From: Candidatus Bathyarchaeia archaeon
Lineage (GTDB): Archaea > Thermoproteota > Bathyarchaeia > Bathyarchaeales > Bathycorpusculaceae
Reading direction: 5' to 3'
DNA: 64,000 nucleotides
Assembly (NCBI GenBank): GCA_049521795.1
Contig: JBEKOM010000001.1
Coordinates: forward strand, 704,001-768,000
Below, one piece after another: positions 2,158-55,441 of this stretch (the first letter of the stretch is position 1; each line of letters starts with the position of its first letter). Under the pieces are notes generated by a model. That model worked only from the letters and a program-made list of their open reading frames with translations. It was not told the DNA's origin and ran no database searches. A program made the position numbers and the translations under genes.

Positions 2158-3420
2158 ATGAACGAGAAGAATCAGCTTTTTAGAAAAGGAGAAAGAGCTG
2201 CGATTCTTTCTGCAGCTGTTCTCCTAGCGTTCAGCATTCTGAAGGGCACAGTATCGATAATCTCTGGGAGCGTGGCATTACTCGCAGACTCTATTCATTC
2301 CTTTGCTGACATTTTTTCCTCGATTGCTGTCTGGGCCGGACTCAAGCTGGTTCAGAAAAAACCTACCGAAAGATTTCCATACGGATATTATAAGGCAGAA
2401 ACCTTGGCCTTGCTGATAGTCGCCGTGACGATCGTTGTATCAGGTGTTCTGATCTTGAAAGAAGCTGTGGATAAACTGTTTGTACGCAGCGTTGTCCTGT
2501 TTCCATCTGTTGTTCTTGCGGTGGCCGCTTTTTCAGGGCTGGTCTCCTACTTTCTTGGTAGGTACAAGAAAAGCGTGGGAAGCCTTATTGGTTCTCAGTC
2601 GCTTATTAGTGAAGGACAACATTCTTTGGTAGACGTCTATACCGCATTAATGGTTTTCGTAGGTGTCTTGTTTGCCAGCCTAGGTTATCCTGTGTCTGAG
2701 GTTTTGGCGGGCTTGGCTATTGGGTTGTACGTTATGAAAGTGGGGTTGTGGTTTGGAAAGGATGCAGTGCTGGTTCTTATGGATGCTTGTTTGAGTCCGC
2801 AAAAGGCCAGAGAAATGAAGGAAATAGCGGAGAAGGTGCGAGGAGTAAGTGGAGTGCATGATCTCAGGTTGCATAGATCAGGACCAGTGTCCTTTGGAGA
2901 GATGCACATAGAGGTGGAAGAAGCTCTTCCTCTGGAGAAAGCACATGAGATTTCAGATGAGATCGAAGAGAAGATTAGAGGGCGTTTCAAGGATATTGAA
3001 TCAATCACGATTCATGTAGAACCAGCATACAAACAGAAAGTCAAGGTTGGCATTCCAGTGGTGGAAGACAAGGGGTTGGAATCAAAGACTTCTGCTCATT
3101 TTGGGAATGTACCCTTTTTTGCATTCATAGAGCTGGAGAATAGGCAAATAAGGAATGTGTATGTCAAGGTCAACAAAGCAGCGAGAACAGAGAGGAAGAA
3201 AGGAATAGGTGCTGCTCGATTCTTGGTGGACGAAAAAGTTGACGTGGTGCTTGCAGGAGGCATGGGCGAAGGTCCATTTCACCTATTGAGAGACAACCTT
3301 GTTCAGATATTTGTTCTTCCAGAACAGGTTGAACTCAAGGAAGCGATCCGTCTTCTCAACGAGAACAAGCTAGAAAGAATGACAGCGCCATTTGAGAAAA
3401 ATGAAACGGATGATAGGTAA
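2158..3420 (+). CDS. Cation diffusion facilitator (FieF-like) fused to a C-terminal NifB/NifX domain
   Basis: SVALLADSIHSFAD, FPYGYYKAE, six TM helices, dimerisation domain (HIEV...AHEI...IHVEP), then IPV..D.GL.S..SAHFG..PFF and GGMGEGP. Confidence 0.9.
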   Translation: MNEKNQLFRKGERAAILSAAVLLAFSILKGTVSIISGSVALLADSIHSFADIFSSIAVWAGLKLVQKKPTERFPYGYYKAETLALLIVAVTIVVSGVLILKEAVDKLFVRSVVLFPSVVLAVAAFSGLVSYFLGRYKKSVGSLIGSQSLISEGQHSLVDVYTALMVFVGVLFASLGYPVSEVLAGLAIGLYVMKVGLWFGKDAVLVLMDACLSPQKAREMKEIAEKVRGVSGVHDLRLHRSGPVSFGEMHIEVEEALPLEKAHEISDEIEEKIRGRFKDIESITIHVEPAYKQKVKVGIPVVEDKGLESKTSAHFGNVPFFAFIELENRQIRNVYVKVNKAARTERKKGIGAARFLVDEKVDVVLAGGMGEGPFHLLRDNLVQIFVLPEQVELKEAIRLLNENKLERMTAPFEKNETDDR

Positions 3421-5877: not shown

Positions 5878-6657
5878 GTGAAGATTGCAGTTTCTGGCAA
5901 GGGAGGTGTGGGCAAAACTCTCATAGCAGCGGGTCTTGCCTGCTCTTTCGTCGATAAGGGCTTCAAGACGATAGCTATTGATGCTGATTCTTCCCCGAAT
6001 CTTGCCTTGACCCTGGGCTTAACGCCTGAAAAGGCAAGACAGATACTGCCCATTTCAGAGAACAAGAAATTGGTTGAATCAAAAACCGACACAGGCTTCT
6101 CGGGCGTTTACCGTCTTTCCTTCAAGGTGGACGACGTTGTCCGCGAGTATTCGGTGAAGACACCGTTTGGCGTGAACTTGATAGTCATGGGAACGGTGAA
6201 GTCGATGGGTTCAGGGTGCACTTGTCCAGAGAACGCTGTTGTGCGTGCTTTGCTTCGCCATCTGGTGGTGGAGCGAGATGAGGCGGTTGTTCTTGACACG
6301 GAGGCGGGGGTTGAGCACATGGGCAGAGGAACGGCTAAGCATGTGGACACTCTGCTGATCGTCGCGGACGCAAACATGAAATCTCTTGAGATAGCCAAAC
6401 ACATTCAAGAATTGGCCTTGGGCTCGAGCATAAAGCAGGTTTATCTGGTTGGAAACAAGGTCGGAGACAAGGTTCAAGAAGAAACGATCGGAAAATTCGC
6501 GCAGGAAAACGGTTTGAAAATCTTGGCCTTTATTCCCTTCGATCAGAAAGTCGCAGAGATGGAAATGAGGGGAGAAACGCCGCTGAAAGACAGGAGCTCA
6601 GAGGCCGTGCGAGCAATAGAAGTGATTGCTGATATGCTCACAGCAAAGAACGACTAA
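5878..6657 (+). CDS. cooC: CooC-type nickel-insertion ATPase (CODH/ACS maturation)
   Basis: KIAVSGKGGVGKT, IDAD..PNL, GSGCTCP Ni-binding CxC motif, DTEAGVEHMGRG. Confidence 0.92.
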   Translation: MKIAVSGKGGVGKTLIAAGLACSFVDKGFKTIAIDADSSPNLALTLGLTPEKARQILPISENKKLVESKTDTGFSGVYRLSFKVDDVVREYSVKTPFGVNLIVMGTVKSMGSGCTCPENAVVRALLRHLVVERDEAVVLDTEAGVEHMGRGTAKHVDTLLIVADANMKSLEIAKHIQELALGSSIKQVYLVGNKVGDKVQEETIGKFAQENGLKILAFIPFDQKVAEMEMRGETPLKDRSSEAVRAIEVIADMLTAKND

Positions 6658-6705
6658 TAAAGAGTTGAGGAAATAATCGATATGCTAGAAGGTGTGAAGT
6701 AATAA

Positions 6706-7476
6706 TTGAAGAAGCTTGTGACAATAGGTCGCGGCGGAACTGGAAAGACTAGTTTTGTGGCGCTGAAGACAAAATACTTCATTGAGATGAGAGCTACGCC
6801 TCTGCTTTTGGTGGACGCTGATCCGGACCAGAACCTTGGGGAAATGGTTGGCGTAGATTTGAAGGAAGAGGGGAAGAAGACGATTTCAGAGCTGCTCATG
6901 GAGGCTTTTTTGAAGGAAGGTGGAACAACTGTCGGTGTTCCGCCCACTGAACGAATTGAAAATAGGATCTGGGCTCAAGGCATGTATGAAGGCGACTTTT
7001 TCGATTTCATTTCTATAGGCACAAAGTGGGTTGAAGGCTGCTATTGCTTGCCGAACGCGGCTTTGAAAGGAGCCTTGGAATCAGTTTCTAAAAATTACAA
7101 GTACGTCTTGATTGACTCGCCAGCAGGACTGGAGCATTTGAACCGTAGGATCACGTCGAAAGTTGATGACATCTTCGACGTTCTTGACCCGTCCAAAAAA
7201 TCGTTCGACCATGTTGACCGGGCCTACCGGATAGCGAAGGAGGTACGCATAGAATTCAAGAATTTCTACGTCGTCGGCGGTTACAGGTTTCCAGAAGGCT
7301 TGGAGAAGACGGCTGACAGCACCTTGAAACTTGATTTCTTGGGCAAGATTGCTCGAGACGACGAAGTTGAGGAACATGTTCTGGCTGGAAAATCACTCTT
7401 AGAACTGCCTCCTGACTCTCCGGCCTACCTCTCCGTTAAGAGAATAGTGGACAAGGCAGGCTACACGAAAGAGTAG
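6706..7476 (+). CDS. cooC: Second CooC/AcsF-type nickel-insertion ATPase
   Basis: GRGGTGKT, VDADPDQNL, EGCYC, DSPAGLEHLNRR. Immediately upstream of cdhA. Confidence 0.88.
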   Translation: MKKLVTIGRGGTGKTSFVALKTKYFIEMRATPLLLVDADPDQNLGEMVGVDLKEEGKKTISELLMEAFLKEGGTTVGVPPTERIENRIWAQGMYEGDFFDFISIGTKWVEGCYCLPNAALKGALESVSKNYKYVLIDSPAGLEHLNRRITSKVDDIFDVLDPSKKSFDHVDRAYRIAKEVRIEFKNFYVVGGYRFPEGLEKTADSTLKLDFLGKIARDDEVEEHVLAGKSLLELPPDSPAYLSVKRIVDKAGYTKE

Positions 7477-7634: not shown

Positions 7635-9983
7635 TTGAGTAGAAAAGATCTTAATGTGAAGATCGGAGAATTGAAGACCGATTTTGGTTTTGTCAAGAAT
7701 CTTGAACTAACAATCGGCAAGGTTGTCGATGGAACTTGGACCGAACCGATGGGACCTACGCCTTTTCCGTCCCTGACTACTCTGAGAGAGTGGGACATGA
7801 GGATCCTTCAGCGCTACAAACCTTTCTACATGCCCTTCTGCGACCTTTGCTGCCTCTGCACCATGGGAAAATGCGACCTGACAGGAAACAAGCGCGGAGC
7901 ATGCGGAATCAACATGCCGGCTCAACAGTCCAGAACAGTGCTTCTAGCATGCTGCATCGGAGCAGCAACGCACGTCGGCCACGCTCGCCATCTACTTGAA
8001 CATCTGATCAAAGAATTCGGACGCGAACACATCATTGACGTGGGCGGGCTGAACGTCCACGTTGAGGCTCCGACGATCCGCCTCGTTTGCGGGTTAAGAC
8101 CTCAAACACTGGCTGACCTGCGAGAGGTATTGGATTATGCTGAGTCTCAACTCACACACTTACTGTCCGTAGTGCACACTGGGCAAGAGGGAAACAACCT
8201 TGACTTCGAATCAAAAGTCTTCCACGCAGGGATGATAGATCATCTAGGCATGGAAGTCGCAGACGTTGCTCAAATTGCGGCCTACGGCTTTCCAAAAGCA
8301 GACCCAGACGCCCCGCTTGTTGATCTGGGCTTCGGCACGATAAACACGGAAAAACCCGTGATCCTAGTCATAGGCCACAATGTTGTCCCTTCCATTGGCA
8401 TAATAGACTACATGAAAGACAACGGCTTTGACGGCGAAATCGAGATCTGCGGACTGTGCTGCACAGCCCACGACATAACCAGATACTACAACCGCGCAAA
8501 GGTTGTCGGCCCAATCTCATGGCAGTTACGCTTCATAAGAAGTGGCGTTCCAGACCTAGTTGTGCTTGATGAACAATGCGTCAGAGCGGATGCCTTCAAC
8601 GAATCGCAAAACATCAAAACCCCAGTCATCGTTACATCAGAAAAGAACTGCATGGGTCTGCCAAACCGCACAAACGACCCAGCAGACGCGATAGTCGAAG
8701 ATCTAGTGTCAGGAAAGACGCCGGGCGCGCTGATTCTAGACCCTGAAAAAGTCGGAGAAGTAGCTACAAAAGTGGCGTTGAAAGTGGCGCCGCTTCGGAA
8801 AAAATTCAAGACGCTGCCAGACGTTGACGAAGTCATCAATGCAGGAAAGGAATGCACTCAATGCAACTCTTGCATTCGAGCATGCCCAGAAGGCCTGGAA
8901 ATTCCTGAAGCGATGAAGGCAGCGGGCGAAGGGAACTTGACGAAGCTCGCAGAACTGTACGACCTATGCATTGGCTGCGGTCGATGCGAGGCTCCGTGTC
9001 CGAAGGGCACGAAGATTCACAGTTCCATCGTGAGGGCTGGGGACAAGAAACTCAGGGACGAGACGTACAAGTTGAGAGTTGGAAGAGGGCCAATACAAGA
9101 CGACGAGATAAGGAACGTTGGAGCCCCGCTTGTGTTCGGCGAGATTCCTGGTGTGGTAGCCTTTGTCGGATGCGCCAACTATCCGAAGGGCGGAAAAGAA
9201 GTTGCTGAGATGTGTATGGAGTTTGCGAACAGACGCTACATAGTTGTGACCTCCGGCTGTGCCGCAATGTCTGCTGGTATGTACAAAGATGAAGATGGAA
9301 AATCACCGTACGAGAAGTACACTGGCGAATTTGCTGCCGGAGGAATCGTCAACGTCGGCTCGTGCGTCGCCAACTCACACATCGCTGGCGCCGCGATAAA
9401 GATCGCAAACATATTCGCGAAGCGAAATCTGAGGGGAAACTATGAAGAGATAGCCGACTACGTGCTCAACCGAGTGGGCGCCGTCGGCGTTGCGTGGGGA
9501 GCCTACTCTCAGAAAGCAGCTTCCATCGCAGCTGGGTTCTGGCGCTTAGGTATTCCGGTCATCGTTGGTCCTCACGGAACAAAGTACAGACGCATGCTTC
9601 TCGGAAGGGCTGACCGAGAAGAGGACTGGTGCGTTTACGATGCAAGGACAGGAGAAAAAACGTATGTTGGACCAACACCCGAGCATCTGTTCTGCGCCGC
9701 TGAGACAAAAGAGGAAGCAATGGTCATGGTAAGCAAGCTCTGCATGAGACCTAATGATACTTCGAAGGGAAGGGCCATAAAACTCACGCATTACATCGAT
9801 TTGCACAAGAGGTTGTACGGAATTATGCCTCAGGACACACGTATGTTTGTTCGCACACTTGGGGACGTTCCGATAACGATGAAAGATGAAATCATCAAGA
9901 CTCTCGAAGAGAAGAATTGGAAGGAAACAGTGATTCCTGACCCGACGCTTTTGCCACGACTGATCAGAAAGATGAAGGAGTAG
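7635..9983 (+). CDS. cdhA: ACDS complex alpha subunit (archaeal Ni-CO dehydrogenase)
   Basis: [33 protein letters not shown], extra 2x[4Fe-4S] domain (CTQCNSC...CP, CIGCGRC..CP), [20 protein letters not shown]. Confidence 0.97.
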
Positions 9984-10532
9984 ATGGACATGGCAACAGC
10001 TGAACCCTGGCAAATCGCTGAGATCGCCGGACCAAAAAAGGCGATGGTAATCACAAAACCAGAAGTGGCCGCGGCGATGATTAAGCAGGCAAAACGCCCG
10101 ATTCTCGTTGTCGGACACATGGCTGCTGAAATTGAACTGGGAGACAAGAAGCTGATCGATTACGTGATTGAGTTGTCCGAGAAAGCCAAGATCCCGGTTG
10201 TCGCAACTGCCCACATAGTGGGTGAGTTTTTGAAAAGGGGTTGTCAGCCCGCTGGTTGGATGCCCGCGGTTGACGTGGGCAACAGGCTGATCGACCCAGA
10301 CTGGTGCGGGTTTGACGGCAAAGGCCAGTACGACTTAGCCCTGTTTGTCGGTCTTCCATACTACATGGAGTGGACGATTCTTTCAGGCGTGAAACACTTC
10401 GCTCCAACCCTCAAGACTGTTACACTGGACAACGTTTATCAACCCAACGCAAGCTGGTCTTTACCAAACATTGCAAAGAAAATTTGGACAGAAGACCTCA
10501 GAGCGATAATTGAAAAAGTCGGAGGAAAATAA
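9984..10532 (+). CDS. cdhB: ACDS complex epsilon subunit
   Basis: AAMIKQAKRPILVVG, W.GFDGKGQYDL..FVG..YY, YQPNASWS. Directly follows cdhA. Confidence 0.93.
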   Translation: MDMATAEPWQIAEIAGPKKAMVITKPEVAAAMIKQAKRPILVVGHMAAEIELGDKKLIDYVIELSEKAKIPVVATAHIVGEFLKRGCQPAGWMPAVDVGNRLIDPDWCGFDGKGQYDLALFVGLPYYMEWTILSGVKHFAPTLKTVTLDNVYQPNASWSLPNIAKKIWTEDLRAIIEKVGGK

Positions 10533-10535
10533 GAA

Positions 10536-11945
10536 GTGTCAATGTTCAAAGACATACCCGTCGACGTCGGCGTCATCTACGAGGGCGAAAGAATTCGAAG
10601 AAAAGACATGTACATTGAGCTAGGCGGACCTGACGTAAAAGAAAAGTTTGAGCTAGTAAGGGTCAAGAAAGCAAAAGAGGTCGAGGATGGAAAAATAACC
10701 ATCGTTGGACCTGACCTGAAAGAGATGGAAGAAGGCAAAGTCTACCCGTTTGGAATACTAATCGAAGTCGCCGGGCCCAAGCTAGAGCCAGAATTGGAGG
10801 GCGTGATAGAGAGGCGGATACACGCTTTCTCCAACTATATTGAAGGGCTCATGCATCTGAACCAACGCTACGACATTTGGCTCAGGCTAAGCAAGAGATC
10901 CTTCGAGAAAGGTTTCAACTCCTTCGATTACGTTGGAAAGGTCCTGCACAGACTCTTCAAGAGCGAATTGCCAATAATCGAGAAGATGCAAGTAACGTTC
11001 ATCACGGATTCGAAGAAAGTGAAGGAACTCTACGATGAAGCCTTGCAGGTTTACGAGGCAAGAGACGCAAGAGCAAGAGGCTTGAAGGACGAGGAAGTTG
11101 ACAAGTTCTACGGATGCGTTCTGTGCCAGTCCTTCGCTCCGTCCCACGTCTGCGTGATCACGCCCCAGAGGTACTCGAACTGTGGAGCCATAAGCTGGTT
11201 TGACGGAAGAGCCGCGGCCAGCATAGACCCGAAGGGGCCTGTCTTCACGATTGAGAGAGGCGAACTGCTTGACCCCGTCGCAGGAGAGTTCTCAGGTGTA
11301 AATGAAGCGGTGAAGAAGAAGTCTTTAGGCGAAATAACCAGGGTGCAACTTTACACAGCGTTCGGCCACCCGCACACGTCGTGCGGTTGCTTCGAGGGAG
11401 TAGCCTTCTACATTCCAGAAGTAGACGGGTTCGGCATCGTGCACAGAGGCTTCAAGGAAACGACTGTCAACGGTTTGGCCTTCTCAACGATCGCCGATTC
11501 CACCGCTGGAGGGCGCCAAGTGGATGGGTTCCACGGTTTGTCCATCGAGTACATGCGTTCTCCAAAGTTTCTACAGGCAGACGGCGGCTGGAAACGCGTC
11601 GTTTGGCTGCCTAAAGAAGTGAAAGAAAGGATAAAAAACTTCGTCGCAGCCGAGACCCTTGACAAAGTGGCCACGGAGGAAGAGGCGAAAACCATAGATA
11701 CGCTGAAGACTTTTCTGAAAGAACACAACCATCCCGTCGTAGAAAGATGGAAAGAAGAGGCGGTTCCCGTTGAAGAAGCGGCACCAACAGAGACGCCGCA
11801 GGAAGCAGATATGATTCCTGTGGCCACCGCGGCATCCTTGCCCATAACAGCCGGCGGGTTCAAAATCATTCTGAAAGACGCCAAAATCTATGCCAAAAAA
11901 GTCATCATACGTTCTCAGAAGAGCGAGAAAACTGAAAAAAGGTGA
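10536..11945 (+). CDS. cdhC: ACDS complex beta subunit (acetyl-CoA synthase)
   Basis: YEGERIR, FYGCVLCQSFAPSHVC, HTSCGCFE A-cluster motif, GGW.RVVW, Pro/Glu linker and C-terminal KIILK.AKI.A.KVII strand. Confidence 0.97.
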   Translation: MSMFKDIPVDVGVIYEGERIRRKDMYIELGGPDVKEKFELVRVKKAKEVEDGKITIVGPDLKEMEEGKVYPFGILIEVAGPKLEPELEGVIERRIHAFSNYIEGLMHLNQRYDIWLRLSKRSFEKGFNSFDYVGKVLHRLFKSELPIIEKMQVTFITDSKKVKELYDEALQVYEARDARARGLKDEEVDKFYGCVLCQSFAPSHVCVITPQRYSNCGAISWFDGRAAASIDPKGPVFTIERGELLDPVAGEFSGVNEAVKKKSLGEITRVQLYTAFGHPHTSCGCFEGVAFYIPEVDGFGIVHRGFKETTVNGLAFSTIADSTAGGRQVDGFHGLSIEYMRSPKFLQADGGWKRVVWLPKEVKERIKNFVAAETLDKVATEEEAKTIDTLKTFLKEHNHPVVERWKEEAVPVEEAAPTETPQEADMIPVATAASLPITAGGFKIILKDAKIYAKKVIIRSQKSEKTEKR

Positions 11946-11950
11946 AAGCA

Positions 11951-13168
11951 TTGCCAAAGGATGAGAAGAAAGAAACCGTAGGGCTCAAGCTGACTCCACG
12001 CCTAATAGAAATCCTAGCGAAACTTCAGGAGATCGAACTTGAAGACTTCCAGATGGACGTCGGAGACTTAGAAATATGGATACAGCCTGGAACAGCCGCT
12101 GTCCCCACGCTTGCTCAGCAGAGGATTGCACCCCAAGTGAAGCTCAAACCTACGGAAATAATCGAAGCAGAATTCGTTCCCCCAGTTGAAACCTACCCGG
12201 GCAAAATCGTTGAAGTAACGCTAGGAGGGACAAAGGGTGAAGGTGGAACCCGCGGCAAGTCGTTGACGATAGGAGGGGAGACTGCGCCTGCCTTTTACAC
12301 GTTTGAAAGGTCTATGCCACATCCTCCAGTCGTGACCGTAGACATCTTCGACATAAAGGTCCCACTGGCCAAAGCCGTGAAGATGCACGTGAAAGAAGTC
12401 ATGGAAGACCCGGCGGCTTGGGCCAAGCTTGCCGTCGAAAAGTTCGGAGCTGACATGCTGACTTTGCACCTCATAAGCATTGATCCGCTTATCAAGGATG
12501 CTTCACCGAAGGAAGCCGTGAAAACCGTTGAAAACGTTGTTCAGGCCGTCGACGTGCCGCTCATGATCGGCGGCTGCGGAGACCCCGTCAAGGATGCGGA
12601 TGTTTTTGCAGCCGTTTGCGAGACCTTTGCAGGAGAGAGGTTCCTGATAAACTCAATAACAAGAGACATGGACGTTGAAAGGTGCGCAAAGTTCGTCAAA
12701 AAGAATGGGCACGTAGCGTTGTCTTTCACTCCTATGGACATGAACATGGCCAGAGAGCTCAACCGTAGACTCTACGATTTTCTGCCAAGAGAGGACATAG
12801 TTATGGATTTGACGACGGCGGCGCTTGGTTACGGTCTGGACTATGCCTTCACAAACATGGAGAGAGCCAGACTCTCCGGACTGATGGGAGATTCAGAATT
12901 GGCTCATCCGATGTCCTCAGGAACCACCAACGCCTGGGCTGCTAGAGAAGCTTGGATGGAAATGGCTCCAGAGTGGGAACCCCGTGAACTCAGAGGGCCC
13001 CTTTGGGAACTTACCACCGCGCTCACCCTCCTGCTTGCAGGGGTCGACCTGTTCATGATGATGCATCCGGCCGCAATGAAAACCGTCAAGGACGTAACTC
13101 GCCAACTGTTGAGTGGAAACCAAAGCGACGCTAGTAAACTCGTGCAATGGGTTTCAATGAAGACCTAG
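11951..13168 (+). CDS. cdhD: ACDS complex delta subunit (corrinoid Fe-S protein small subunit)
   Basis: GGTRG....IGGE, TTAALGYGLDY, NAWAAREAW, GPLWE, MMMHP. TTG 11951 follows a GGTGA RBS; the ORF track starts at 11942. Confidence 0.95.
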   Translation: MPKDEKKETVGLKLTPRLIEILAKLQEIELEDFQMDVGDLEIWIQPGTAAVPTLAQQRIAPQVKLKPTEIIEAEFVPPVETYPGKIVEVTLGGTKGEGGTRGKSLTIGGETAPAFYTFERSMPHPPVVTVDIFDIKVPLAKAVKMHVKEVMEDPAAWAKLAVEKFGADMLTLHLISIDPLIKDASPKEAVKTVENVVQAVDVPLMIGGCGDPVKDADVFAAVCETFAGERFLINSITRDMDVERCAKFVKKNGHVALSFTPMDMNMARELNRRLYDFLPREDIVMDLTTAALGYGLDYAFTNMERARLSGLMGDSELAHPMSSGTTNAWAAREAWMEMAPEWEPRELRGPLWELTTALTLLLAGVDLFMMMHPAAMKTVKDVTRQLLSGNQSDASKLVQWVSMKT

Positions 13169-13187
13169 CCAAGGAGCGCCACGCCAA

Positions 13188-14639
13188 ATGAGTGAAAGAG
13201 AAACAAAAGTCAAAACAGGAATCAAGGAGCTAAGCCCGCTTGACGTTTACAAGGTTCTTCCCAGGACAAACTGCAAGGAGTGCGGCGAAGAAAACTGCAT
13301 GGCCTTCGCAACGAAGCTCGTGAACCGCGAAGTATCGCTTGAGAAGTGCCCTCCGCTCTTGACTAAGAAGTATGAGAAATTCTACAAACAATTAAAGGAA
13401 ATGCTGAAGCCTGCTGTGAGAGAGGTCATTCTAGGCATGGGAGATAAAGCCGTCAAGATCGGCGGAAAACTTGTCATGTACAGGCACGAGTTCACGTACT
13501 CCGACCCAACGGCAATAGCTCTCGACGTCACCGACGAAATGCCTCAAGAAGAGATATTGGAAAGGATAAGGAAGGTTGAACACTTCAGCTTTGAATACAT
13601 AGGACAAACCCTGAAGCTTGACATGATCGCTGTCCGTTCCACTTCGGACGACCCGGACAAGTTCAAGGCAACAGTTCAGAAAGTGACTGAGAACTCAAAA
13701 CTGCCGCTGATCCTGTGTTCACTGAACCCAGCTGTCCTCGAAGCAGGATTGATGGTCGCCGCAAAAACAAGACCGCTTCTGTATGCTGCAACAAAGGATA
13801 ACTGGAAAGAGATGGCCGAACTGTCCCAAATGTACGACTGCCCCCTGACAGTTTTTGCGCCAGGCGATCTGAACCTGTTGAGATCTCTGACCAAGACCCT
13901 GCTTGATTACGGAGTTCAAGACCTCGTCTTAGACCCAGGCACTTTTCCTGATGAAGGCTTGGTCGACACGTTGAGCAACTTCACGATGCTTCGCCGAGCT
14001 GCATGCAAGAGAGGGGATGAGCTCTCAGGTTTTCCGCTGATCGGTATCCCGCTAGTCGCGTGGATGGACAGAGGCAACACTCAGCAAGAGATTCTGAAGT
14101 GGCGTGAAGCCTATTTAGCTGCGATGCTTATCACGCGTTTCGCAGACGTTCTGATAATGCACAACGTTGACGGCTGGGCGCTTCTTCCGCCCGTCGTGTT
14201 GCGGCAGAACCTCTACACGGACCCTCGGAAACCAGTAGCCGTCGAACCTGGACTGAAGGTTTTCGGGACTCCTGATGAGAACTCTCCCGTGATGTTCACC
14301 ACAAACTTCGCGTTGACATACTACACGGTGGCTTCAGACATAGAGTCTGCAAAGTTGAACATCTACGTCTTAGTAATCGACACTGAAGGAATAGCCGTGG
14401 ACAGCGCCGTCGCTGGAAGAAAGTTGACGGCAGAAAAGGTCGCCGATGCCGTAAAGGCTTCTGGAATCGAAGGCAAAGTCAAGCATAAGAAACTGCTAAT
14501 TCCAGGAAAAGCCGCACGTCTAAGCGGCGAAATCGAGGAAATGAGCGGCTGGCAAGTGTTGGTTGGACCCCGTGACTCATCAGACATCCCGAAGTACCTG
14601 AAGGAAAAATGGCAAAACACTGCACAACCTTCTGTCTAG
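13188..14639 (+). CDS. cdhE: ACDS complex gamma subunit (corrinoid Fe-S protein large subunit)
   Basis: LPRTNCKECGEENCMAFA...CP Fe-S motif, YRHE, YTDPRKP, TTNFALTYYTV, VGPRDSS. Confidence 0.96.
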   Translation: MSERETKVKTGIKELSPLDVYKVLPRTNCKECGEENCMAFATKLVNREVSLEKCPPLLTKKYEKFYKQLKEMLKPAVREVILGMGDKAVKIGGKLVMYRHEFTYSDPTAIALDVTDEMPQEEILERIRKVEHFSFEYIGQTLKLDMIAVRSTSDDPDKFKATVQKVTENSKLPLILCSLNPAVLEAGLMVAAKTRPLLYAATKDNWKEMAELSQMYDCPLTVFAPGDLNLLRSLTKTLLDYGVQDLVLDPGTFPDEGLVDTLSNFTMLRRAACKRGDELSGFPLIGIPLVAWMDRGNTQQEILKWREAYLAAMLITRFADVLIMHNVDGWALLPPVVLRQNLYTDPRKPVAVEPGLKVFGTPDENSPVMFTTNFALTYYTVASDIESAKLNIYVLVIDTEGIAVDSAVAGRKLTAEKVADAVKASGIEGKVKHKKLLIPGKAARLSGEIEEMSGWQVLVGPRDSSDIPKYLKEKWQNTAQPSV

Positions 14640-15522: not shown

Positions 15523-15996
15523 TTAGGACTTTGAATTCCGTCGTCTAGTGTAGTCTTCAGGTTTCGGAAAAGCTTCGTGAACTCTGTCAAAACGTCTTTT
15601 AGTGTCAATTCTATGCTGCAGAGTCACAAAGTCTCTTGACTTGCTGAATGTTTCTGAGCTTCCGTCTGGTCTTTTTCTCGTAATCTTTATGCAGTCATCG
15701 ACTATGCAGTTTAGGACGCAGGCGCCGCAGTATATGCAAAGATTTTCCGTGAGTCCAACTTCTCCCAGCTTCCAAAACAAAGCGTTTGTTGGACAAGCCT
15801 TTATGCAAAGCTTACACTCAACACCCTTGCACGTTCTCTTGTTAATGGTTAACTTTCCTTCGCCAAAGAATTCCTTGATGCCCAGCGGGGCCAGAAGCTC
15901 CTCTCTTCGTTTCCTTTTCTCCTGTTCAGCCGTTTCCGTCAACATTTGAAACATGTCGGCGCTCGAATCTTTGCTGGGCTTGCTTTCCTTTCGCAT
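15523..15996 (-). CDS. 2x[4Fe-4S] ferredoxin-domain protein with N- and C-terminal extensions
   Basis: CKGVECKLCIKACP and CIYCGACVLNC motifs. Confidence 0.8.
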   Translation of the reverse strand: MRKESKPSKDSSADMFQMLTETAEQEKRKRREELLAPLGIKEFFGEGKLTINKRTCKGVECKLCIKACPTNALFWKLGEVGLTENLCIYCGACVLNCIVDDCIKITRKRPDGSSETFSKSRDFVTLQHRIDTKRRFDRVHEAFPKPEDYTRRRNSKS

Positions 15997-16220: not shown

Positions 16221-16400
16221 ATGTGTGAATTCACTGTAATTCTCGACGGAAAAGAAGTGTTCAAAGATGTGGTTTACGCGAAGATGGAAGGCGGCAAGGT
16301 GATCCTCCGGGATGTGCTTGGAGAATCTCTGCAATTTGGCAACTGTAGGATCACAGAAGTTGACGTGACCTCGACGCGGCTGGTACTATCGCGCATCTGA
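16221..16400 (+). CDS. cooT: CooT family nickel-binding protein
   Basis: MCE N-terminus (Cys2), KDVV, LRDVLGE, I.EVD, 59 aa. TATA-like GTTTATAA at 16171-16178. Next to the CODH cluster. Confidence 0.8.
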   Translation: MCEFTVILDGKEVFKDVVYAKMEGGKVILRDVLGESLQFGNCRITEVDVTSTRLVLSRI

Positions 16401-16494: not shown

Positions 16495-18114
16495 TTACGG
16501 TCTTATCCCACTTTTTTCAATGATTTTCGGGAGGACCCATTCAAAACCGACGGCCATTAAATGAAGCCCTGAAGCACTGGTTGTTCTGCGGATTTCGCCG
16601 ATAAGGTTAGCGAAGGTTTCGATGTTTTCCTCCAGAAACGCTTCCTTGCTCTTTTCTCTTGCCTTTCGGAGCCGTTGCTCTAGGTCAGGTGGGACCTTTA
16701 TTCCTGGCACGAATTTGATCATCCAATCCATCATGGCTTGGGATTTGAAGGGTGCGATTCCAAGCAGGACAGGCGTGTTGAGGTAAGACACTGCTTTCAT
16801 GAAGTTTTCGGCCTGTTCTACGCTGTAGACGCATTGGGTTTGTATGAAATCGACTCCGAGTTTGACCTTTCTTTCGATTTTCAGAATTTCGGGCTCTAAG
16901 GGGTCAGCGTTGGGTGATGCTCCAATACCGATGTTAAATTTGGGCGGTTCTACTATTTTGTTTCCGTTCAGGTCTAAGCCCTCGTCGACCACTTTTCTCA
17001 GCATGTAAACCAATGTTGCCGAGTCTAAGTCAAAGACTGGTTTGGCCTGCGGCATATCGCCGACCGTCGTGTAGTCGCCTGTTATGGCCAAAATGTTCTT
17101 TATTCCCAGAGTACCAGCGGCTAACACGTCAGAAAGCAGCGCTATGCGGTTCCTATCCCTCGTGGTTATCTGAAAAACGGCTTCTACGCACGCTTCTCTT
17201 TGGACCAGATAAGATGAAACAAGCCCGTTGAAAAACCCGAAGGCTGTAGGATTGTCCGTCACGTTGATCGCGGCAACGTGGCCTTTCAAGATCTTCGCGC
17301 TTTCAATGACTTCGTGCAGGTTTGTCGTTTTCATCGGTTCAAGTTCGCCTGTGAATACGTACCTGCCCTCTTTGAGTTGCTTCATCAACTCACCGTAAGC
17401 TTCCCTCGTCACGTTTTTCGCAGGTTCCTCTTTCATCTCTGTCTTCGTCTTTTCTGTAATCGTTTCCATGGCCAGCTGTCGTGGGTGTTCGGAGATTCTG
17501 TAGTCCTTAGGTATCCTGAATTTCTTGAAGAGGTCTAGCTCGTTTCTTTCTGTAAGTCTGTTGTAGATCAGAATCCATGCGCAGTCGTTTTTCCAGCCTC
17601 CTGCCTCGCATTTTCCCTTCACCTGTCCCCCGCATGGTCCGTTGAGAAGACTTTTGGCGCATCGAGTTATTGGACATATGGAGCCTGTTTCGCCTAGGAG
17701 GCATTCTCCGCATCCTCTGCACCTCTCGTGCATCGTTGCGCCGTCGCGATCTTGCGACCCGAGGAAAACCGTGTCTTGGGCAGGATAAACCGGAATGTTC
17801 GGAAAAACTTCTGCTAGGGTTTGCACTCCGACGCCGCATGCCAGAGACAGTACAGCGTCGATGTCCTTGACTTGGGGTGTTAGCGTTGTGTTAACTTCAT
17901 AATTGTCACACTGTTTGCCCATTGTCGTTGGTGTGCACTTGAATTCTTTGTTTTTGAGTTTTCCACCCATTTCTACAAGCATAGTGTAGGTTTTAGCCTC
18001 TCGTAACCCTCTCGGAGGAGTCGTACATCCATCGCAGCCCACGACTAGAATCCTCTTGTAGGGTGCTAGTAGACGCAATATTTCCTCTAGAGCTTTCTCT
18101 TTTGTCACTATCAT
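16495..18114 (-). CDS. metF: Fused MetV-MetF methylene-tetrahydrofolate (pterin) reductase
   Basis: N-terminal ~213 aa MetV (VGCDGC, QCD, LACGVGVQ, CRGCGEC.L....ICPITRCAKSLLNGPCGG....CE....CAW), a linker, then the MetF barrel (GELEP, NVTDNP, RDRNRIAL, AITGD, FDLDS, DFIQTQ, GLHLM). Confidence 0.9.
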   Translation of the reverse strand: MIVTKEKALEEILRLLAPYKRILVVGCDGCTTPPRGLREAKTYTMLVEMGGKLKNKEFKCTPTTMGKQCDNYEVNTTLTPQVKDIDAVLSLACGVGVQTLAEVFPNIPVYPAQDTVFLGSQDRDGATMHERCRGCGECLLGETGSICPITRCAKSLLNGPCGGQVKGKCEAGGWKNDCAWILIYNRLTERNELDLFKKFRIPKDYRISEHPRQLAMETITEKTKTEMKEEPAKNVTREAYGELMKQLKEGRYVFTGELEPMKTTNLHEVIESAKILKGHVAAINVTDNPTAFGFFNGLVSSYLVQREACVEAVFQITTRDRNRIALLSDVLAAGTLGIKNILAITGDYTTVGDMPQAKPVFDLDSATLVYMLRKVVDEGLDLNGNKIVEPPKFNIGIGASPNADPLEPEILKIERKVKLGVDFIQTQCVYSVEQAENFMKAVSYLNTPVLLGIAPFKSQAMMDWMIKFVPGIKVPPDLEQRLRKAREKSKEAFLEENIETFANLIGEIRRTTSASGLHLMAVGFEWVLPKIIEKSGIRP

Positions 18115-19331
18115 TCTTCTACAGCTCCCCTCATTGATGATGAGTCTATCTTTTCCATAAATGACTTAACGTGACCGTCCAGATCTCCGGCGTTCTTCGG
18201 GGATACGAAGCACATTTCAAGTCTTTCTCCAAGGTTGATTTCGGCTAGCAGTTTTTTCAGCGAACCGATTCGTTGCTCAGCTTCCTCGTTTCCCTTTTCC
18301 AGTTTGCACTCGTCCTTTTTGCAGGCTGCTACGAGAACGCCGTCGAAACCCAAATGGAACGCCTCGAGTATGTGCAACGTGTCCACTCTGCCCGCACACG
18401 GAAGACCTTCAAACACAACGTTTTTGGTAGCTGTTTTCCGGGGCAGGTCGAGGTTGGAAAACTCGCTCCATTGACAACCCAAAACTAGGATGACCGGTTT
18501 CTTGTTCTTCTGTCTCATTCTCGGAATCAGCGAGCGATAATTGCGAATCTGCTGGGAGATAGTTTCGTACTCGAAACCGTCCAGCTCGATGGCAAGCGCT
18601 GGACAGACCGCCACACAGGTTCCACAGCCTGAACAACTCTTCAAATCTAGCTGCGGCACTTTCGCGGCTTCCATTTTTATCGCGTCGTATGGGCAGACGT
18701 AGTGGCAGTTTCCACAGCCAATACATCGGTCGCTGTCGATGTGCGCTTTTATTGACCGTTTCGATATAGCCAAAGTGTCTGGCTTAAAACCCAGCTCACT
18801 TAAGAGGCTCTGAACTAGTACAAGTCTGCGCGTGCCGATCATGCTTCCATCCTTGAACCGGCAATATTTATCTTCACAGGGCATTATCGCCAGTTTGTCT
18901 ATTCCTGATGCTAGTGCTTTGAACAAGAATTCTGGTGGCACGCGTCCGACGCACGGCAGAATCAGCGAAACAAAGTTGTCAGAGTGCCGCTTGTCCAACT
19001 CGTCCGCAGTCACTTTCTCAGAGGAACCAGCACCCCGACAAGTCAGAAGTAGCTTATCTGAGCCCGTCTTACGCATGGTTTTCCTAATGTAACCTAGTAG
19101 TGAATCAGCATTGTAATAGATCGTCTCTATCGCAGAAGCTGGGCAAGCGCTGGAACAGATGCCGCAAGCTTGGCACTTTTCGATGTTTAACTTGACTTCG
19201 CCAGGTTTTTCTTCGAACGATATGGCGTCGAAGGGACAGACAGACGGGCAAATCATGCACCTGCCGCAATTGTCATCACTTATTCTTACGCTGGCTTCCA
19301 TCTGCATCTTTTCACTCGGATTTTCGGTCAT
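18111..19331 (-). CDS. Tandem (2x[4Fe-4S] ferredoxin + MvhD/FlpD [2Fe-2S]) x2 electron-transfer protein
   Basis: Four CxxCxxCxxxCP motifs in two pairs. Two MvhD-like domains (TC...PCVGRV...PCEDKYC and GCQW...PCAGRV...GFDGVLVAACKKDEC). 4-nt overlap with metVF. Confidence 0.85.
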   Translation of the reverse strand: MTENPSEKMQMEASVRISDDNCGRCMICPSVCPFDAISFEEKPGEVKLNIEKCQACGICSSACPASAIETIYYNADSLLGYIRKTMRKTGSDKLLLTCRGAGSSEKVTADELDKRHSDNFVSLILPCVGRVPPEFLFKALASGIDKLAIMPCEDKYCRFKDGSMIGTRRLVLVQSLLSELGFKPDTLAISKRSIKAHIDSDRCIGCGNCHYVCPYDAIKMEAAKVPQLDLKSCSGCGTCVAVCPALAIELDGFEYETISQQIRNYRSLIPRMRQKNKKPVILVLGCQWSEFSNLDLPRKTATKNVVFEGLPCAGRVDTLHILEAFHLGFDGVLVAACKKDECKLEKGNEEAEQRIGSLKKLLAEINLGERLEMCFVSPKNAGDLDGHVKSFMEKIDSSSMRGAVEE

Positions 19332-40534: not shown

Positions 40535-41344
40535 TTAGCCGAGAATGAGGCGTATGAGCATCCAGACGATGTCGCCCATAAACAAGGCTACAATCAGGCC
40601 TGCTGTGACGAATATGAGCATGGGGAGGCCAGGGGTAGCCCAAACCTTATCTCTCATGCTTCCGGCTTCGATGGCTTTGTCCAATCTTTCAACGATCTCG
40701 TTTCTGCCCGCGTCCTTAGGTAAGATGACCAGTTTTCTCTTGAAGCTTCGTTCTGGGGTTTCTTCCACGTCCTCCATGGGGTACACGTGCCACTTCTCTT
40801 TCAGCTTGTTGATGGAAACTTTGTACCCTGTTATTAAGATCAAAATCTTCTTTCCCGGAGATTCATTCTTATGGTCTCCTTCAAACAGGGGTTCCCGAGT
40901 TTTGAGGCGTGAAGACACGTTGTAAAGCAGAATTACAATTGCCGTCAGTGCGGCGAACAGCACCGCGTTGCTGAAAACGGTTATTGGAAAGAAAGTTCTT
41001 GAGATCGGTGAAGGCTGACCTGTTAACGGTGTCAGCAGGTTCTCAGGATAGAAAGGCAAGGCAAGTGCCAGACACATGAGGGCTTTTGCGTCTGCCCCGC
41101 CGAAGCCTCCTGAATAATAGAGCACTAGTGCGAAGGCCGCGGTCAAACCGAAGCATGTACCATACGCGATCAGCTGTGACGGTTCATAGAGAAAGAGTTC
41201 CGTAAACGTAAGTGCAAAAGATAAAGGCGCGAGCAACAGCCAAACACTGTCGCTTACTTCACGGGATTTGTAGTCACTCCATGATGCATAAAGCAGAAAG
41301 AGCAAAACTGTCGTTGATCTTGCCAAGTCAAATAACATTTGCAC
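40535..41344 (-). CDS. pibD: Prepilin/preflagellin peptidase (A24, PibD/FlaK type)
   Basis: YASWSD...REV.D..W, FGGADAKAL, C-terminal VWATPGLPM. Confidence 0.9.
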   Translation of the reverse strand: MQMLFDLARSTTVLLFLLYASWSDYKSREVSDSVWLLLAPLSFALTFTELFLYEPSQLIAYGTCFGLTAAFALVLYYSGGFGGADAKALMCLALALPFYPENLLTPLTGQPSPISRTFFPITVFSNAVLFAALTAIVILLYNVSSRLKTREPLFEGDHKNESPGKKILILITGYKVSINKLKEKWHVYPMEDVEETPERSFKRKLVILPKDAGRNEIVERLDKAIEAGSMRDKVWATPGLPMLIFVTAGLIVALFMGDIVWMLIRLILG

Positions 41345-41452
41345 AGCGACACCGTTGCAGATCTTCTGTCGTTATCGCTCTGGATATTTAACAATTAGGA
41401 TGTGTCGGCATAGAAAGCTTTGCGAATTTTCTTGGCGGAGTTTTCGATTTTC

Positions 41453-41890
41453 CTAAGAGGCTTGTGCCTGCTGTGCCCATGGTCCTAAGATCTGCTCTTG
41501 AGCTATGACTTTGAAGTAATATGTTGCGCCTGATGTCCAGTTGTAGTTTACCGTAATTCTCGCAACGTGGCCTGCTAAGCACGCTTCGGGAAGAGATGAG
41601 CTCGTTAGGTTCTGCCCATTTGAGGATGATGTCCCAACGTAGATTTGGATTAAGTGTGCGTCAGAAGTTCCTGCGTTTTCTATGTCAATATCTATTTTGT
41701 CATTTGCGGTTCCGTAGAAGCTGATGTTTGCCGGGGTCAGTCTGACACCTGCTTGGTTTCCAGCGTTGTTCATGTAAGTCATGACCCAAGCATAGGTTAC
41801 GACGATTGCCGCCACTGCTATGACTACTAGCAGCAGAGTCGCAAGTATCGGTGATATGGCTTTTCTGGACTTCACCATTTTTCTTATCAA
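41453..41890 (-). CDS. Archaeal type IV pilin, probable major pilin
   Basis: Class III signal KSRKA|ISPILATLLLVVIAVAA, short beta-rich domain (I.N.GT.D..L..IYV...G.TY.FKV). Own TATA (TTAAATA, about 41932-41938) upstream. Confidence 0.88.
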   Translation of the reverse strand: MIRKMVKSRKAISPILATLLLVVIAVAAIVVTYAWVMTYMNNAGNQAGVRLTPANISFYGTANDKIDIDIENAGTSDAHLIQIYVGTSSSNGQNLTSSSLPEACLAGHVARITVNYNWTSGATYYFKVIAQEQILGPWAQQAQAS

Positions 41891-42024
41891 ACATATTCAC
41901 CCTTGTGTGTATAGCAAATCTTGCTATTCATTATTTAACTCGTATGAACTCGGAATCCACATTTGAGACACCTGCGAAGTGCCCGACATGAACTTGAAAT
42001 CTGCAAAGATAACGGATTATCGTT

Positions 42025-44973: not shown

Positions 44974-44976
44974 ATC

Positions 44977-46290
44977 CTATACTCCTCCCACTTGTCCGAG
45001 CTGTAAAACAACGAGCTTTGAAGTGCCAGCTACAGTGTATTCAGAAGCCAGAAGCCTAGGCTTGTAGTCACTCAAAAGCCCTAGCGCCGTAAGCCTGATG
45101 TCAGGCGTTCTTGTCAAACCTAGCGACATGAAACTACCTGTAATGTTACCTGAGGTAATATATCTGTATACTGCGCCGGGGATCGCACTTCCCACAGGAT
45201 TGAGTACGTAGGTTGTCACCGTTAGCTGATATGCGCCTAGAATCGATGAGTCCAAGGCTCGACTTGACGTTTGCTGAATAGATGGATAAATCCCATAATA
45301 GTTGCAATAATACTGCGCGACAGAGGATAAACTAACGGAACCAGGATTATCAGTGCTGGTACCAGCAGCCGTGTAGCTCTGGCTGGTTAGCCCTTGGAGA
45401 AAGGATCCTAGGCCGATATTACCAACCATTACCATTCCAAAGATTCCCCAACTGTTCTGACTGTTTGAGAATGCAATAGTGTTGGAGACGTAGTACAGTG
45501 GCCAGCCTACTATGCTTACCCAGGTCCAATTATACTGGTTTACTCTTTGACCTAAAGTGTAGCAGTAGAGAGAATACGAATTTCTATATGCGTCATATCC
45601 AACATTAGTGCTCATGTAATATCCTGCAGGGATGGGCACGGCTTCGCCGCACGTGTTTATGATTACAGCATTTTGTAAGGTCTCGTTTTGCAGAGGGTGG
45701 TTGTCTAGTATTTGTGCAAATTGTGTTGAGTTCTGCACGACTATTGTGGTTTGGAAGTACGGTGAGAGTAGGTTGTATAGATCATTAGCAAGTGTTGCTG
45801 GTGTGTATCCGGTGATCCACCACCCATTCGAATCGCTACAGTTCAGAATATAGAGCGTTCCGCCTCCACCGTGTTCTCCGATTTTCTCAGGAATTACGTT
45901 GAATGTGACGTTTGAGGAAGCAGCTAGGTAAGAGGAGGCGTCTGAGCCTACGCCTAGGTTCTCCGCGTTTGACATTGACTCTGTGGCGCTGTACACTTGA
46001 TTCGCTCCGTTCGTTACAGTGTAAACCGTCAGGTTGTAAACGAGGTTTGGAGGCAGGCAAGCGGAGAGTGCGGTTTGAAGTTGGCCCCATGCTGGATCAC
46101 CCTGTGCCTTGAACACTGTATCGCTAAGGTCATGATCGGAGTCGAGCATTTCCAGCGTCGTCAACGCTAATCTTCCAAGGTTTATCGGTGAAACTTTTCG
46201 TGGTTGAGGTAAGACGGCGTATGTATAAGATATTACTGAGGCTCCTGTGATGATGATGATAACGAGTAGAACCTCTATAGTCCGCATCAT
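44977..46290 (-). CDS. Pilin-like membrane-anchored protein (MMRTIE N-terminus)
   Basis: N-terminal TIE + hydrophobic helix, rest extracellular-like. Inside the pilus operon with 1-3 nt gaps. Confidence 0.7.
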   Translation of the reverse strand: MMRTIEVLLVIIIITGASVISYTYAVLPQPRKVSPINLGRLALTTLEMLDSDHDLSDTVFKAQGDPAWGQLQTALSACLPPNLVYNLTVYTVTNGANQVYSATESMSNAENLGVGSDASSYLAASSNVTFNVIPEKIGEHGGGGTLYILNCSDSNGWWITGYTPATLANDLYNLLSPYFQTTIVVQNSTQFAQILDNHPLQNETLQNAVIINTCGEAVPIPAGYYMSTNVGYDAYRNSYSLYCYTLGQRVNQYNWTWVSIVGWPLYYVSNTIAFSNSQNSWGIFGMVMVGNIGLGSFLQGLTSQSYTAAGTSTDNPGSVSLSSVAQYYCNYYGIYPSIQQTSSRALDSSILGAYQLTVTTYVLNPVGSAIPGAVYRYITSGNITGSFMSLGLTRTPDIRLTALGLLSDYKPRLLASEYTVAGTSKLVVLQLGQVGGV

Positions 46291-46291
46291 C

Positions 46292-47527: not shown

Positions 47528-47537
47528 TTTTTTCCTC

Positions 47538-48017
47538 CTATTCTCCGAACCATAGCAATATTGTTCCATTCGAAAACTTTTGGGCGATCACGCATGCATT
47601 TGCAGAATTACTCAAAAAGATGGATTGCTGCCAAAGAACATTGGATCCCAAGATAACCGTGGTTATCACGGAGTTTGAGGTTCCAATCAATTTCACTGTT
47701 AATTGGAGGAAGGACGGATTTGACCCAGGGTTTGTGCTCGACGATAGGGTTGCATTTCCCATGTAGTAAGCGCTCTCAATGAACGGTGGAAGTCCTGGGG
47801 AATAGGTCACCGTTCCTGCAGGTATCGCGTCGTGATTCAGGGAGAAATACAGTTGTTGCACCGCGCTTCCCAGTTGACCTGCAACATCTTGGAGAGCAAG
47901 TGTTTGTCGCGAATCTACCCACTTGTTCATGAGCGAATTTGCAAAAATGGGAAAAAGGAAGATCTGAAGTATTAACACCGGCATCATAATGATGTACTCG
48001 ATTGTCACGTGTGGCAT
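47538..48017 (-). CDS. Minor pilin-like protein (MPHVTIEY N-terminus)
   Basis: TIEY + hydrophobic helix + amphipathic helix (LQDVAGQLGSAVQQLY), LP..I....Y. Confidence 0.72.
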   Translation of the reverse strand: MPHVTIEYIIMMPVLILQIFLFPIFANSLMNKWVDSRQTLALQDVAGQLGSAVQQLYFSLNHDAIPAGTVTYSPGLPPFIESAYYMGNATLSSSTNPGSNPSFLQLTVKLIGTSNSVITTVILGSNVLWQQSIFLSNSANACVIAQKFSNGTILLWFGE

Positions 48018-48036
48018 TCATATTCCTCAAAAGTGG

Positions 48037-48864: not shown

Positions 48865-48895
48865 GTTAATCTCTACTCTTTCCTTGATCCTTTTC

Positions 48896-55259: not shown

Positions 55260-55441
55260 GGGGAAGCATCCACTTTGTAGTCTAGCTTGTGCTATTCCTC
55301 TTGTCCGTGCCAGCTTAAGCGTTATGAATTCAGGATAAAACTTCAAAATCTTGAGCTTAATGGTTTTCTAGTTATGCGTGGTTGAGCAAGAGATTTAACG
55401 AAGTGCAAGAACAAGCTGATCCACAATTGGGAGGGGACTGC

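Follow-up and report, generated by a model that had tools for sequence, protein, structure and literature searches.

A fused MetV-MetF protein and its double ferredoxin-MvhD partner beside the acetyl-CoA synthase genes of a Bathyarchaeia archaeon: a candidate methylene-tetrahydropterin reductase

In anoxic sediments and soils, Bathyarchaeia belong to the most abundant archaea, and how complete their Wood-Ljungdahl pathway is decides whether they are taken to fix CO2 or produce acetate. Mer, the F420-dependent methylene-tetrahydromethanopterin (H4MPT) reductase, is a luciferase-like protein without Fe-S clusters or flavin that takes its hydride from F420H2. Several papers on Bathyarchaeia, in their passages on this step, treat a missing mer gene as a lost step or as the mark of an unknown enzyme and do not link MetVF to the gap; the paper on termite-gut Bathyarchaeia contains no occurrence of MetF, MetV or MvhD. 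Does a genome without Mer hold another enzyme for the methylene/methyl step? The question is raised by a locus of a Candidatus Bathyarchaeia archaeon (GenBank assembly GCA_049521795.1), where a gene joining MetV to MetF (metVF) and an overlapping gene for an Fe-S protein, here called the partner, lie beside the genes of CO dehydrogenase/acetyl-CoA decarbonylase-synthase (ACDS). The window analysed is the stretch of 64,000 nucleotides from position 704,001 to 768,000 of contig JBEKOM010000001.1, and positions are window positions unless a contig or locus is named. We propose that MetVF and its partner probably form a two-polypeptide, Fe-S-wired methylene-tetrahydropterin reductase which acts at the Wood-Ljungdahl pathway's methylene/methyl step in Mer's place, most likely on an H4MPT-type carrier.

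The gene metVF (16495-18114, minus strand) is a single open reading frame (ORF) of 539 amino acids (P0001). Residues 1-215 (17470-18114) form the MetV part, in which the MetV-type Pfam domain PF12225 (Pfam name 'MTHFR C terminal') is matched at residues 110-205 with an E-value of 3.5e-30. A linker (residues 216-234) leads to the TIM barrel of MetF, the methylenetetrahydrofolate reductase (MTHFR), at residues 235-539 (16498-17412); here PF02219 (MTHFR) has a match (E 1.9e-28) that extends over residues 245-536 and, in the 287-position profile, from position 4 to position 287. Other Bathyarchaeia have separate MetV genes of about 215 aa that align with residues 1-215, so the MetV part of the fusion is complete. 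Twelve of its cysteines are invariant among 40 aligned relatives (C27, C30, C69, C93, C132, C135, C138, C147, C152, C161, C169 and C178). A structure model built on 40 relatives (mean pLDDT 77.7) consists of two folded parts and a low-confidence linker; compared with solved MTHFRs, its C-terminal barrel reaches TMt values of 0.76-0.85. Searches of solved structures with MetVF returned distant MTHFRs only; no MetV-like chain was found among them, by sequence or by fold.

The best 120 database relatives of MetVF all carry both domains, with a length of about 540 aa in most and less in a few. The closest, with up to 97% identity, come from Bathyarchaeota/Bathyarchaeia, and the matches of a homologue search with the MetF domain are all from Bathyarchaeia. 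Of 37 MetF genes at 36 loci in other records and genomes, 18 have the fused frame unbroken; together with the 120 two-domain relatives this rules out chance or an assembly artefact. One protein with a complete MetV and a MetF/MTHFR barrel, as first described in an earlier note made from this DNA, is thus confirmed, and so is that note's description of an ATGA overlap with an Fe-S protein bearing two MvhD domains.

The partner gene (18111-19331) overlaps metVF on the same minus strand, and its product (P0002, 406 aa) is an internal duplication. Pfam finds four Fer4 and two FlpD/MvhD stretches; the two halves are 29% identical (E 9e-22), each with a ferredoxin domain for two [4Fe-4S] clusters and, after it, an MvhD/FlpD domain. 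The cysteines that are invariant among 39 relatives are grouped 8+4+8+4. Four of them fall in each FlpD stretch (C98, C127, C152, C157 and C286, C312, C337, C342), and from solved MvhD we take these to be [2Fe-2S] ligands. The nearest named relatives of the partner are the C-terminal ferredoxin-plus-MvhD ends of HdrA2, and among solved structures it comes closest to HdrA C-terminal ferredoxin domains and to MvhD and polyferredoxins of Hdr-Mvh complexes. Of the 595 database relatives in the family, the closest mostly measure about 405 aa; few bear a name, either hydrogenase iron-sulfur subunit or F420-reducing hydrogenase delta subunit. A double ferredoxin-MvhD protein of about 44% identity is named from Ca. 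Bathyarchaeum.

When MetVF and the partner were modelled as a complex, the score was 0.61 (runs 0.64, 0.59 and 0.61), against 0.00 for the best of three controls; of 80 solved complexes 58 attain the mark applied, as do 2 of 110 mismatched pairs, a calibration that is rough since custom alignments were used. The runs have at least 92% of contacts in common, and the partner's pLDDT is at least 78. In the model, MetV residues 6-53 and 123, near C27 and C30, contact the second half of the partner, at residues 204-211 and 243-246 of its second ferredoxin domain and at residues 318-326 and 361-367 of its second MvhD domain, while the first half is untouched by MetV. A remembered complex is an unlikely source of this result, because solved structures hold no MetV-like chain. 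The model supports, but does not show, binding of the partner to the N-terminus of MetV.

The pairing recurs. We compared 35 distinct loci (the window, L007-L021 and L030-L048; L029 lies on the same contig as L016). A gene for a double ferredoxin-MvhD protein stands directly beside metV in 13 of them, from families f1, f10, f11 and f18, and these 13 loci occupy deep, separate branches of the MetF tree. Elsewhere a single ferredoxin-MvhD gene is nearby (5 loci), or HdrA-type genes, mostly MvhD-fused (6 loci), or NfnAB-like genes only (2 loci); no MvhD- or Hdr-type neighbour was detected in 9 of the 35. The gene order varies, being mch, double ferredoxin-MvhD, metV, metF in G004. In G110 (L048, C8:190437-199288) the order is metF, double ferredoxin-MvhD, metV, directly adjoining cdhABCDE, and a gene for ribofuranosylaminobenzene 5'-phosphate (RFAP) synthase is found about 9 kb away on the same contig. 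The host of the window also encodes a paralogue of the partner, 39% identical, at C3:68238-69458. In that minus-strand set (C3:65992-69458; L022:5992-9458) the paralogue gene is overlapped by an NfnA-like gene (DHODB_Fe-S_bind) and an NfnB/GltD-like gene (Fer4_20 + Pyr_redox_2), and the same type of adaptor is therefore paired there with a different flavoenzyme.

What does the rest of the genome offer for the methylene/methyl step? The host assembly has 69 contigs with a total of 2.44 Mb, at a completeness of 98.75%. It holds one MTHFR gene only, that of the window. Canonical Mer (TIGR03555) was not found in it, the best match being a luciferase-like paralogue on C3 with 67 bits against a cut-off of 348.7. 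Nor did the genome yield F420-type Mtd, Fhs, FolD, any Pterin_bind domain (which covers FolP, MetH and AcsE), MtrH, McrA or RFAP synthase (TIGR00144), a marker of methanopterin biosynthesis. Present are Mch, whose gene shares an operon on C11 with fwd-like genes, two copies of Ftr and an MtdB-like Mpt_N dehydrogenase, which adjoins Ftr on C5. Taken together, these genes found and not found describe a methyl branch of the H4MPT type with a single gap at the methylene reductase. Since neither Mer nor another reductase was found, MetVF is the sole recognisable candidate for the missing methylene-pterin reductase. Hdr genes are encoded elsewhere in the genome: an hdrA-C-B cluster without mvhD (C1:539980-543347), a second cluster, hdrCB-A-mvhD (C1:678.8-683.8 kb), and several further HdrA genes, some fused to MvhD.

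The genome-level predictions of the earlier note mostly hold, and its interpretation is partly supported. It had noted that the cluster has no AcsE-type methyltransferase, and none turned up genome-wide; the searches it proposed for mer, fhs and folD come out negative, and those for ftr, mch and hdrABC positive, with Fwd, an MtdB-like gene and MvhD genes present as well. The linkage of metVF to cdh which it had pointed out, within 2 kb of cdhE (1856 bp from the end of cdhE to the 3' end of metVF), is conserved in relatives. Its idea that mer and metVF exclude each other across Bathyarchaeia fails, as the survey below shows.

The survey covered 201 Bathyarchaeia genomes, evenly sampled and each at least 80% complete; its counts are descriptive lower bounds for which we claim no significance, as relatives are not independent and some matches are unlisted. 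MetVF-type genes were called at E-values of 1.3e-54 or below; the next weaker class begins at 3.4e-24 and resembles a different MetF of about 287 aa. Such genes are found in 69 genomes and are commoner than Mer over its cut-off (49 genomes); CdhC is found in 138, Mch in 154 and FolD in 90. Both reductases occur in 22 genomes, Mer only in 27, MetVF only in 47 and neither in 105; the odds ratio is 1.8, and hence there is no negative association. Mutual exclusivity is rejected by the 22 genomes with both genes, some of which have them adjacent. Among the 138 genomes with CdhC, the figures are 21 with both, 24 with Mer only, 39 with MetVF only and 54 with neither.

MetVF keeps the company of the H4MPT and ACDS genes. 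Sixty of the 69 MetVF genomes have CdhC. Mch is present in 64 of the 69, as in 45 of the 49 Mer genomes, compared with 65 of the 105 genomes that have neither reductase. FolD was not found in 39 of the 69, nor in any of the 55 genomes sampled from the order of the window's host. On the chromosome, metF and cdhC share a contig and are no more than 20 kb apart in at least 24 genomes, which come from 7 families; in 16 the distance is no more than 6 kb. The mch gene lies within 4 kb of metV or metF in 9 genomes, and mer within 7 kb of metVF in 5. Seven genomes with Mer only have mer within 10 kb of cdhC, in the place that metVF takes elsewhere. These observations point to MetVF tracking the H4MPT/ACDS gene set, much as Mer does. 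The presence of Mch by itself is of no use as a discriminator, for it is kept by 49 of the 54 cdhC-positive genomes with neither reductase.

On the domain make-up, the gene overlap, the conserved linkage and the gene content of the genome, to which the complex model adds support, we infer substrate, direction, cofactors and electron donor as follows. A low-potential donor would feed the partner, whose four [4Fe-4S] and two [2Fe-2S] sites would take up the electrons and pass them to the cysteine-bound clusters of the MetV part; from there they would go over the flavin of the MetF barrel to the methylene-pterin. The resulting methyl-pterin would be handed to CdhDE of the neighbouring ACDS; in the reverse direction, methyl-pterin would be consumed. 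The donor could be free reduced ferredoxin, by likeness to the type II MetVF of bacteria, or an HdrA core, by likeness to the type IV enzyme and because HdrA neighbours occur in other Bathyarchaeia. We consider free ferredoxin and an HdrA-type flavoprotein docked on the unused ferredoxin-MvhD half about equally likely. The potential of the methylene/methyl-H4MPT couple lies some 120 mV below that of the folate couple, and ferredoxin-level donors are therefore favoured over NAD(P)H-driven bifurcation.

Several points weigh against a methylene reductase on an H4MPT-type carrier. RFAP synthase and a dihydropteroate-synthase-like Pterin_bind protein were not found in the genome, which leaves the synthesis of either pterin carrier unexplained; H4MPT, which the earlier note suggested as a possibility, is by the gene set the likelier carrier, although its biosynthesis marker is missing. 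Given that H4MPT-dependent enzymes are present, the two gaps suggest salvage of the cofactor or a non-orthologous biosynthetic step. The absence of RFAP synthase is weak evidence, because the gene, over its cut-off in 50 of 101 genomes of the class, is also missing from genomes with canonical Mer (among them G075, G012, G108 and G096); as a marker of the cofactor it is uninformative. MetVF is no simple substitute for Mer, as both are found in 22 genomes, where they may use different electron carriers. A missing Mer does not on its own demand a replacement either, since canonical Mer and a MetVF-type gene are both lacking in 49 genomes that have CdhC and Mch, among them most of the window's own family; in these, either the methyl branch is truncated or a third reductase goes unrecognised. 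To our knowledge, every characterised MetF acts on folate. In the window, metVF is convergent with cdh and outside the cdh transcript, and hdrABC does not adjoin the metVF-partner pair. Finally, the link to the clade of MetF of anaerobic methanotrophic archaea (ANME-1), discussed below, is taken from the published statement on that group (PMC9012536) rather than from a tree of our own with named sequences.

How far could Hdr proteins be part of the enzyme? The double ferredoxin-MvhD adaptor may dock MetVF on a bifurcating flavoprotein of the HdrA type encoded elsewhere, which would give a split-locus counterpart of the Moorella MetFV-HdrCBA-MvhD complex and would tie methylene reduction to another redox reaction. 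In solved Hdr-Mvh complexes, HdrA is bound by the MvhD module; the partner resembles the C-terminal ferredoxin domain plus MvhD of HdrA, and the genome holds both the mvhD-less hdrA-C-B and the hdrCB-A-mvhD cluster besides its further HdrA genes. HdrA-type genes flank metVF in 6 of the 35 loci, and the complex model leaves the first half of the partner free. Against this, the window has no hdr gene at 20 kb or less from the pair, so that the type IV layout, with hdrCBA and mvhD clustered with metVF, is reduced here to an adjacent MvhD-domain gene with hdr clusters elsewhere; with an H4MPT carrier, moreover, the methylene/methyl couple would be too negative for NAD(P)H-driven bifurcation. We regard Hdr coupling as possible and hold it tentatively.

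The adaptor idea can be extended. The Bathyarchaeia proteins of about 405 aa with two ferredoxin-MvhD units might be plug-in adaptors, one carrying MetVF and a paralogue carrying an NfnAB-like NAD(P)H module, which dock on MvhD-less HdrA cores; the whole would be a modular network of flavin-based electron bifurcation, with a 'fifth type' of methylene reductase in it acting on methylene-H4MPT. We find this extension rather doubtful. If it were true, many Bathyarchaeia that are scored as Wood-Ljungdahl-incomplete for lack of mer would in fact be complete.

Two further explanations do worse than Hdr coupling. MetVF could be an ordinary enzyme of tetrahydrofolate (H4F) metabolism, making methyl-H4F for biosynthesis, of methionine for instance, or for a bacterial-type branch, with its nearness to cdh incidental. 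The family is indeed annotated and characterised as methylenetetrahydrofolate reductase, RFAP synthase is missing from the genome, and MetVF and FolD co-occur in family f18. FolD, Fhs and Pterin_bind are missing from the genome too, however, FolD was found in none of the 55 genomes of the order, and the linkage of metVF with cdh, mch and mer recurs across families. In addition, the methyl donor of archaeal CdhDE is H4MPT or tetrahydrosarcinapterin (H4SPT), and we think a folate enzyme very unlikely. It is just as improbable that the double ferredoxin-MvhD protein serves a hydrogenase, Hdr or Nfn-like enzyme and is co-transcribed with metVF without being its subunit: the Nfn-coupled paralogue and the 9 loci lacking an MvhD or Hdr neighbour would fit, but the ATGA overlap, the adjacency in 13 of 35 loci on deep, separate MetF branches (including the metF-partner-metV order in G110) and the complex score well above the controls argue for a subunit.

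The proposed methylene reductase has precedents. MetF as a replacement for Mer is an old proposal for ANME-1, and the passages on MetF in Chadwick et al. 2022 (PMC9012536) state that MetF of the type found in ANME-1 and Ca. Syntrophoarchaeum, perhaps acting on H4MPT, groups with sequences of Bathyarchaeota, Verstraetearchaeota and Asgard archaea, that it always has a MetV gene as its neighbour and that Ca. Syntrophoarchaeum clusters MetFV with HdrA and MvhD. Novelty is in this respect less than the earlier note implied. According to the same passages, ANME-1 and Ca. Syntrophoarchaeum combine an archaeal MetF and MetV with H4MPT enzymes and ACDS, and have no Mer and no other folate enzymes; the gene content of our genome is the same, with mer and the other folate C1 enzymes not found and the H4MPT branch and ACDS present. 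Unlike in those organisms, MetV and MetF are here one polypeptide, encoded beside cdh, and the partner is a stand-alone duplicated ferredoxin-MvhD protein with no HdrA adjoining. As a further difference, Mcr and Mtr were not found in the host genome, and the setting is therefore acetogenic or acetyl-CoA-oxidising rather than one of methane or alkane oxidation. In Alkanophaga, as described for these genes by Zehnle et al. 2023 (PMC10322722), mer and metF are both present, and both are transcribed; the 22 Bathyarchaeia genomes with both reductases carry the same combination of genes.

Among bacterial enzymes, type II MetVF (Clostridium ljungdahlii, Thermoanaerobacter kivui, Eubacterium callanderi) works with reduced ferredoxin in vitro, as the relevant part of Oppinger et al. 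2021 (PMC8760232) reports. It shares with our protein the MetF barrel, the Cys-rich MetV and the lack of an obvious NAD(P)H module, and in type II the electrons enter via Fe-S clusters; unlike ours, it is a bacterial, folate-dependent enzyme of separate subunits with no MvhD-type partner. The type IV enzyme of Moorella thermoacetica, in which MetFV is associated with HdrCBA-MvhD (as described in the corresponding parts of PMC8760232 and PMC9012536), likewise has MetV and MetF together with an MvhD-type [2Fe-2S] protein and Hdr genes in the same genome. In Moorella six genes form one cluster with a single-domain MvhD, whereas here the Hdr genes lie elsewhere and MvhD is duplicated and ferredoxin-fused. 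With Mer, MetVF shares the proposed reaction and the position near cdhC, but it belongs to an unrelated sequence family. Full-text searches of the open literature gave, in the passages bearing on these proteins, no description of a fused MetV-MetF or of a duplicated ferredoxin-MvhD partner; subscription journals and supplementary tables lie outside that scope. MetF standing in for Mer has been proposed already, and what is new here is the fused form and the duplicated ferredoxin-MvhD partner. The main value of the locus lies in an experimental handle and in a correction to the pathway calls for Bathyarchaeia. The fused form is a two-gene construct, a compact means of approaching the use of H4MPT by ANME-1-type MetF and the electron donor of MetVF. 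As for the calls, 39 of 138 cdhC genomes have MetVF and no Mer, so a sizeable share of 'incomplete' pathways may be complete.

How old is the fusion? An uninterrupted fused frame occurs in 6 of the 69 MetVF genomes of the sample; four further candidates, flagged with internal stops, are adjacent split genes. A maximum-likelihood tree built on 37 MetF domains places the 18 fused genes in two well-supported, separate clades, one of 14 rows including the window and the other holding 4 rows (families f11 and f21). Since the two clades are separated by split genes, the state has changed at least twice. The fusion is real, lineage-specific and a minority state, and beyond fixing a 1:1 ratio of its parts it is probably of little functional weight. 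Two loci, L030 (G040) and L032 (G045), each carry two metVF sets back to back and divergent, one a fused copy with a double ferredoxin-MvhD partner and the other a distant split metV + metF pair (34-47% identity). A record titled Ca. Acidiferrales bacterium (Acidobacteriota; L009) carries TatD, double ferredoxin-MvhD and fused metVF genes with 84-91% identity to those of the window; it nests within the Bathyarchaeia clade and is probably a mis-binned contig.

The ACDS genes cdhA, cdhB, cdhC, cdhD and cdhE (7635-14639, plus strand) are recognised in turn by Prismane, CO_dh, CdhC + ACS_CODH_B_C, CdhD, and CdhD + FeS. Upstream of cdhA stand two genes for CooC/AcsF-like P-loop ATPases (5878-7476, plus; CbiA/Fer4_NifH/ParA and AAA_31), which from family and position are likely nickel-insertion accessories. 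A gene for a HAD hydrolase follows cdhABCDE, and after it comes a ferredoxin-like gene of 157 aa (15523-15996, minus) with weak Fer4 matches, which is kept beside cdhE in the relatives L007, L008, L011, L014, L015, L019 and L039. The apparent 500-bp gap between this gene and metVF holds a CooT-like gene of 59 aa (16221-16400, plus; PF10133 CooT, E 1.9e-9), below the usual size of ORF lists; judged from its sequence, it would give, with the two cooC-like genes, a nickel-handling accessory set for the cdh cluster. The ferredoxin-like gene was considered as a third gene of the metVF operon and dropped, as the CooT-like gene on the opposite strand lies between and as it tracks cdhE, not metVF, in L011 and L039.

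Farther off, and outside the module, is cofE (F420-0:gamma-glutamyl ligase; 55382-56215, plus; PF01996, E 6.7e-75), which the earlier note had correctly placed in the window. A type IV pilus-like locus (40535-52181, minus) includes a prepilin peptidase gene (40535-41344), a T2SSF-like gene and a T2SSE-like ATPase gene (48896-52181), and three large ORFs of 982, 437 and 425 aa without Pfam matches (42025-47569). It is followed by a gene for a surface protein of 1032 aa with beta-helix, PKD and Big_1 domains (52248-55346). An ORF of 1072 aa (56479-59697, plus) has no Pfam match at E 0.001. Near the start of the window (2158-3420, plus), a cation-efflux transporter (Cation_efflux + ZT_dimer) is fused to a Nitro_FeMo-Co domain, which is like those that bind the dinitrogenase cofactor.

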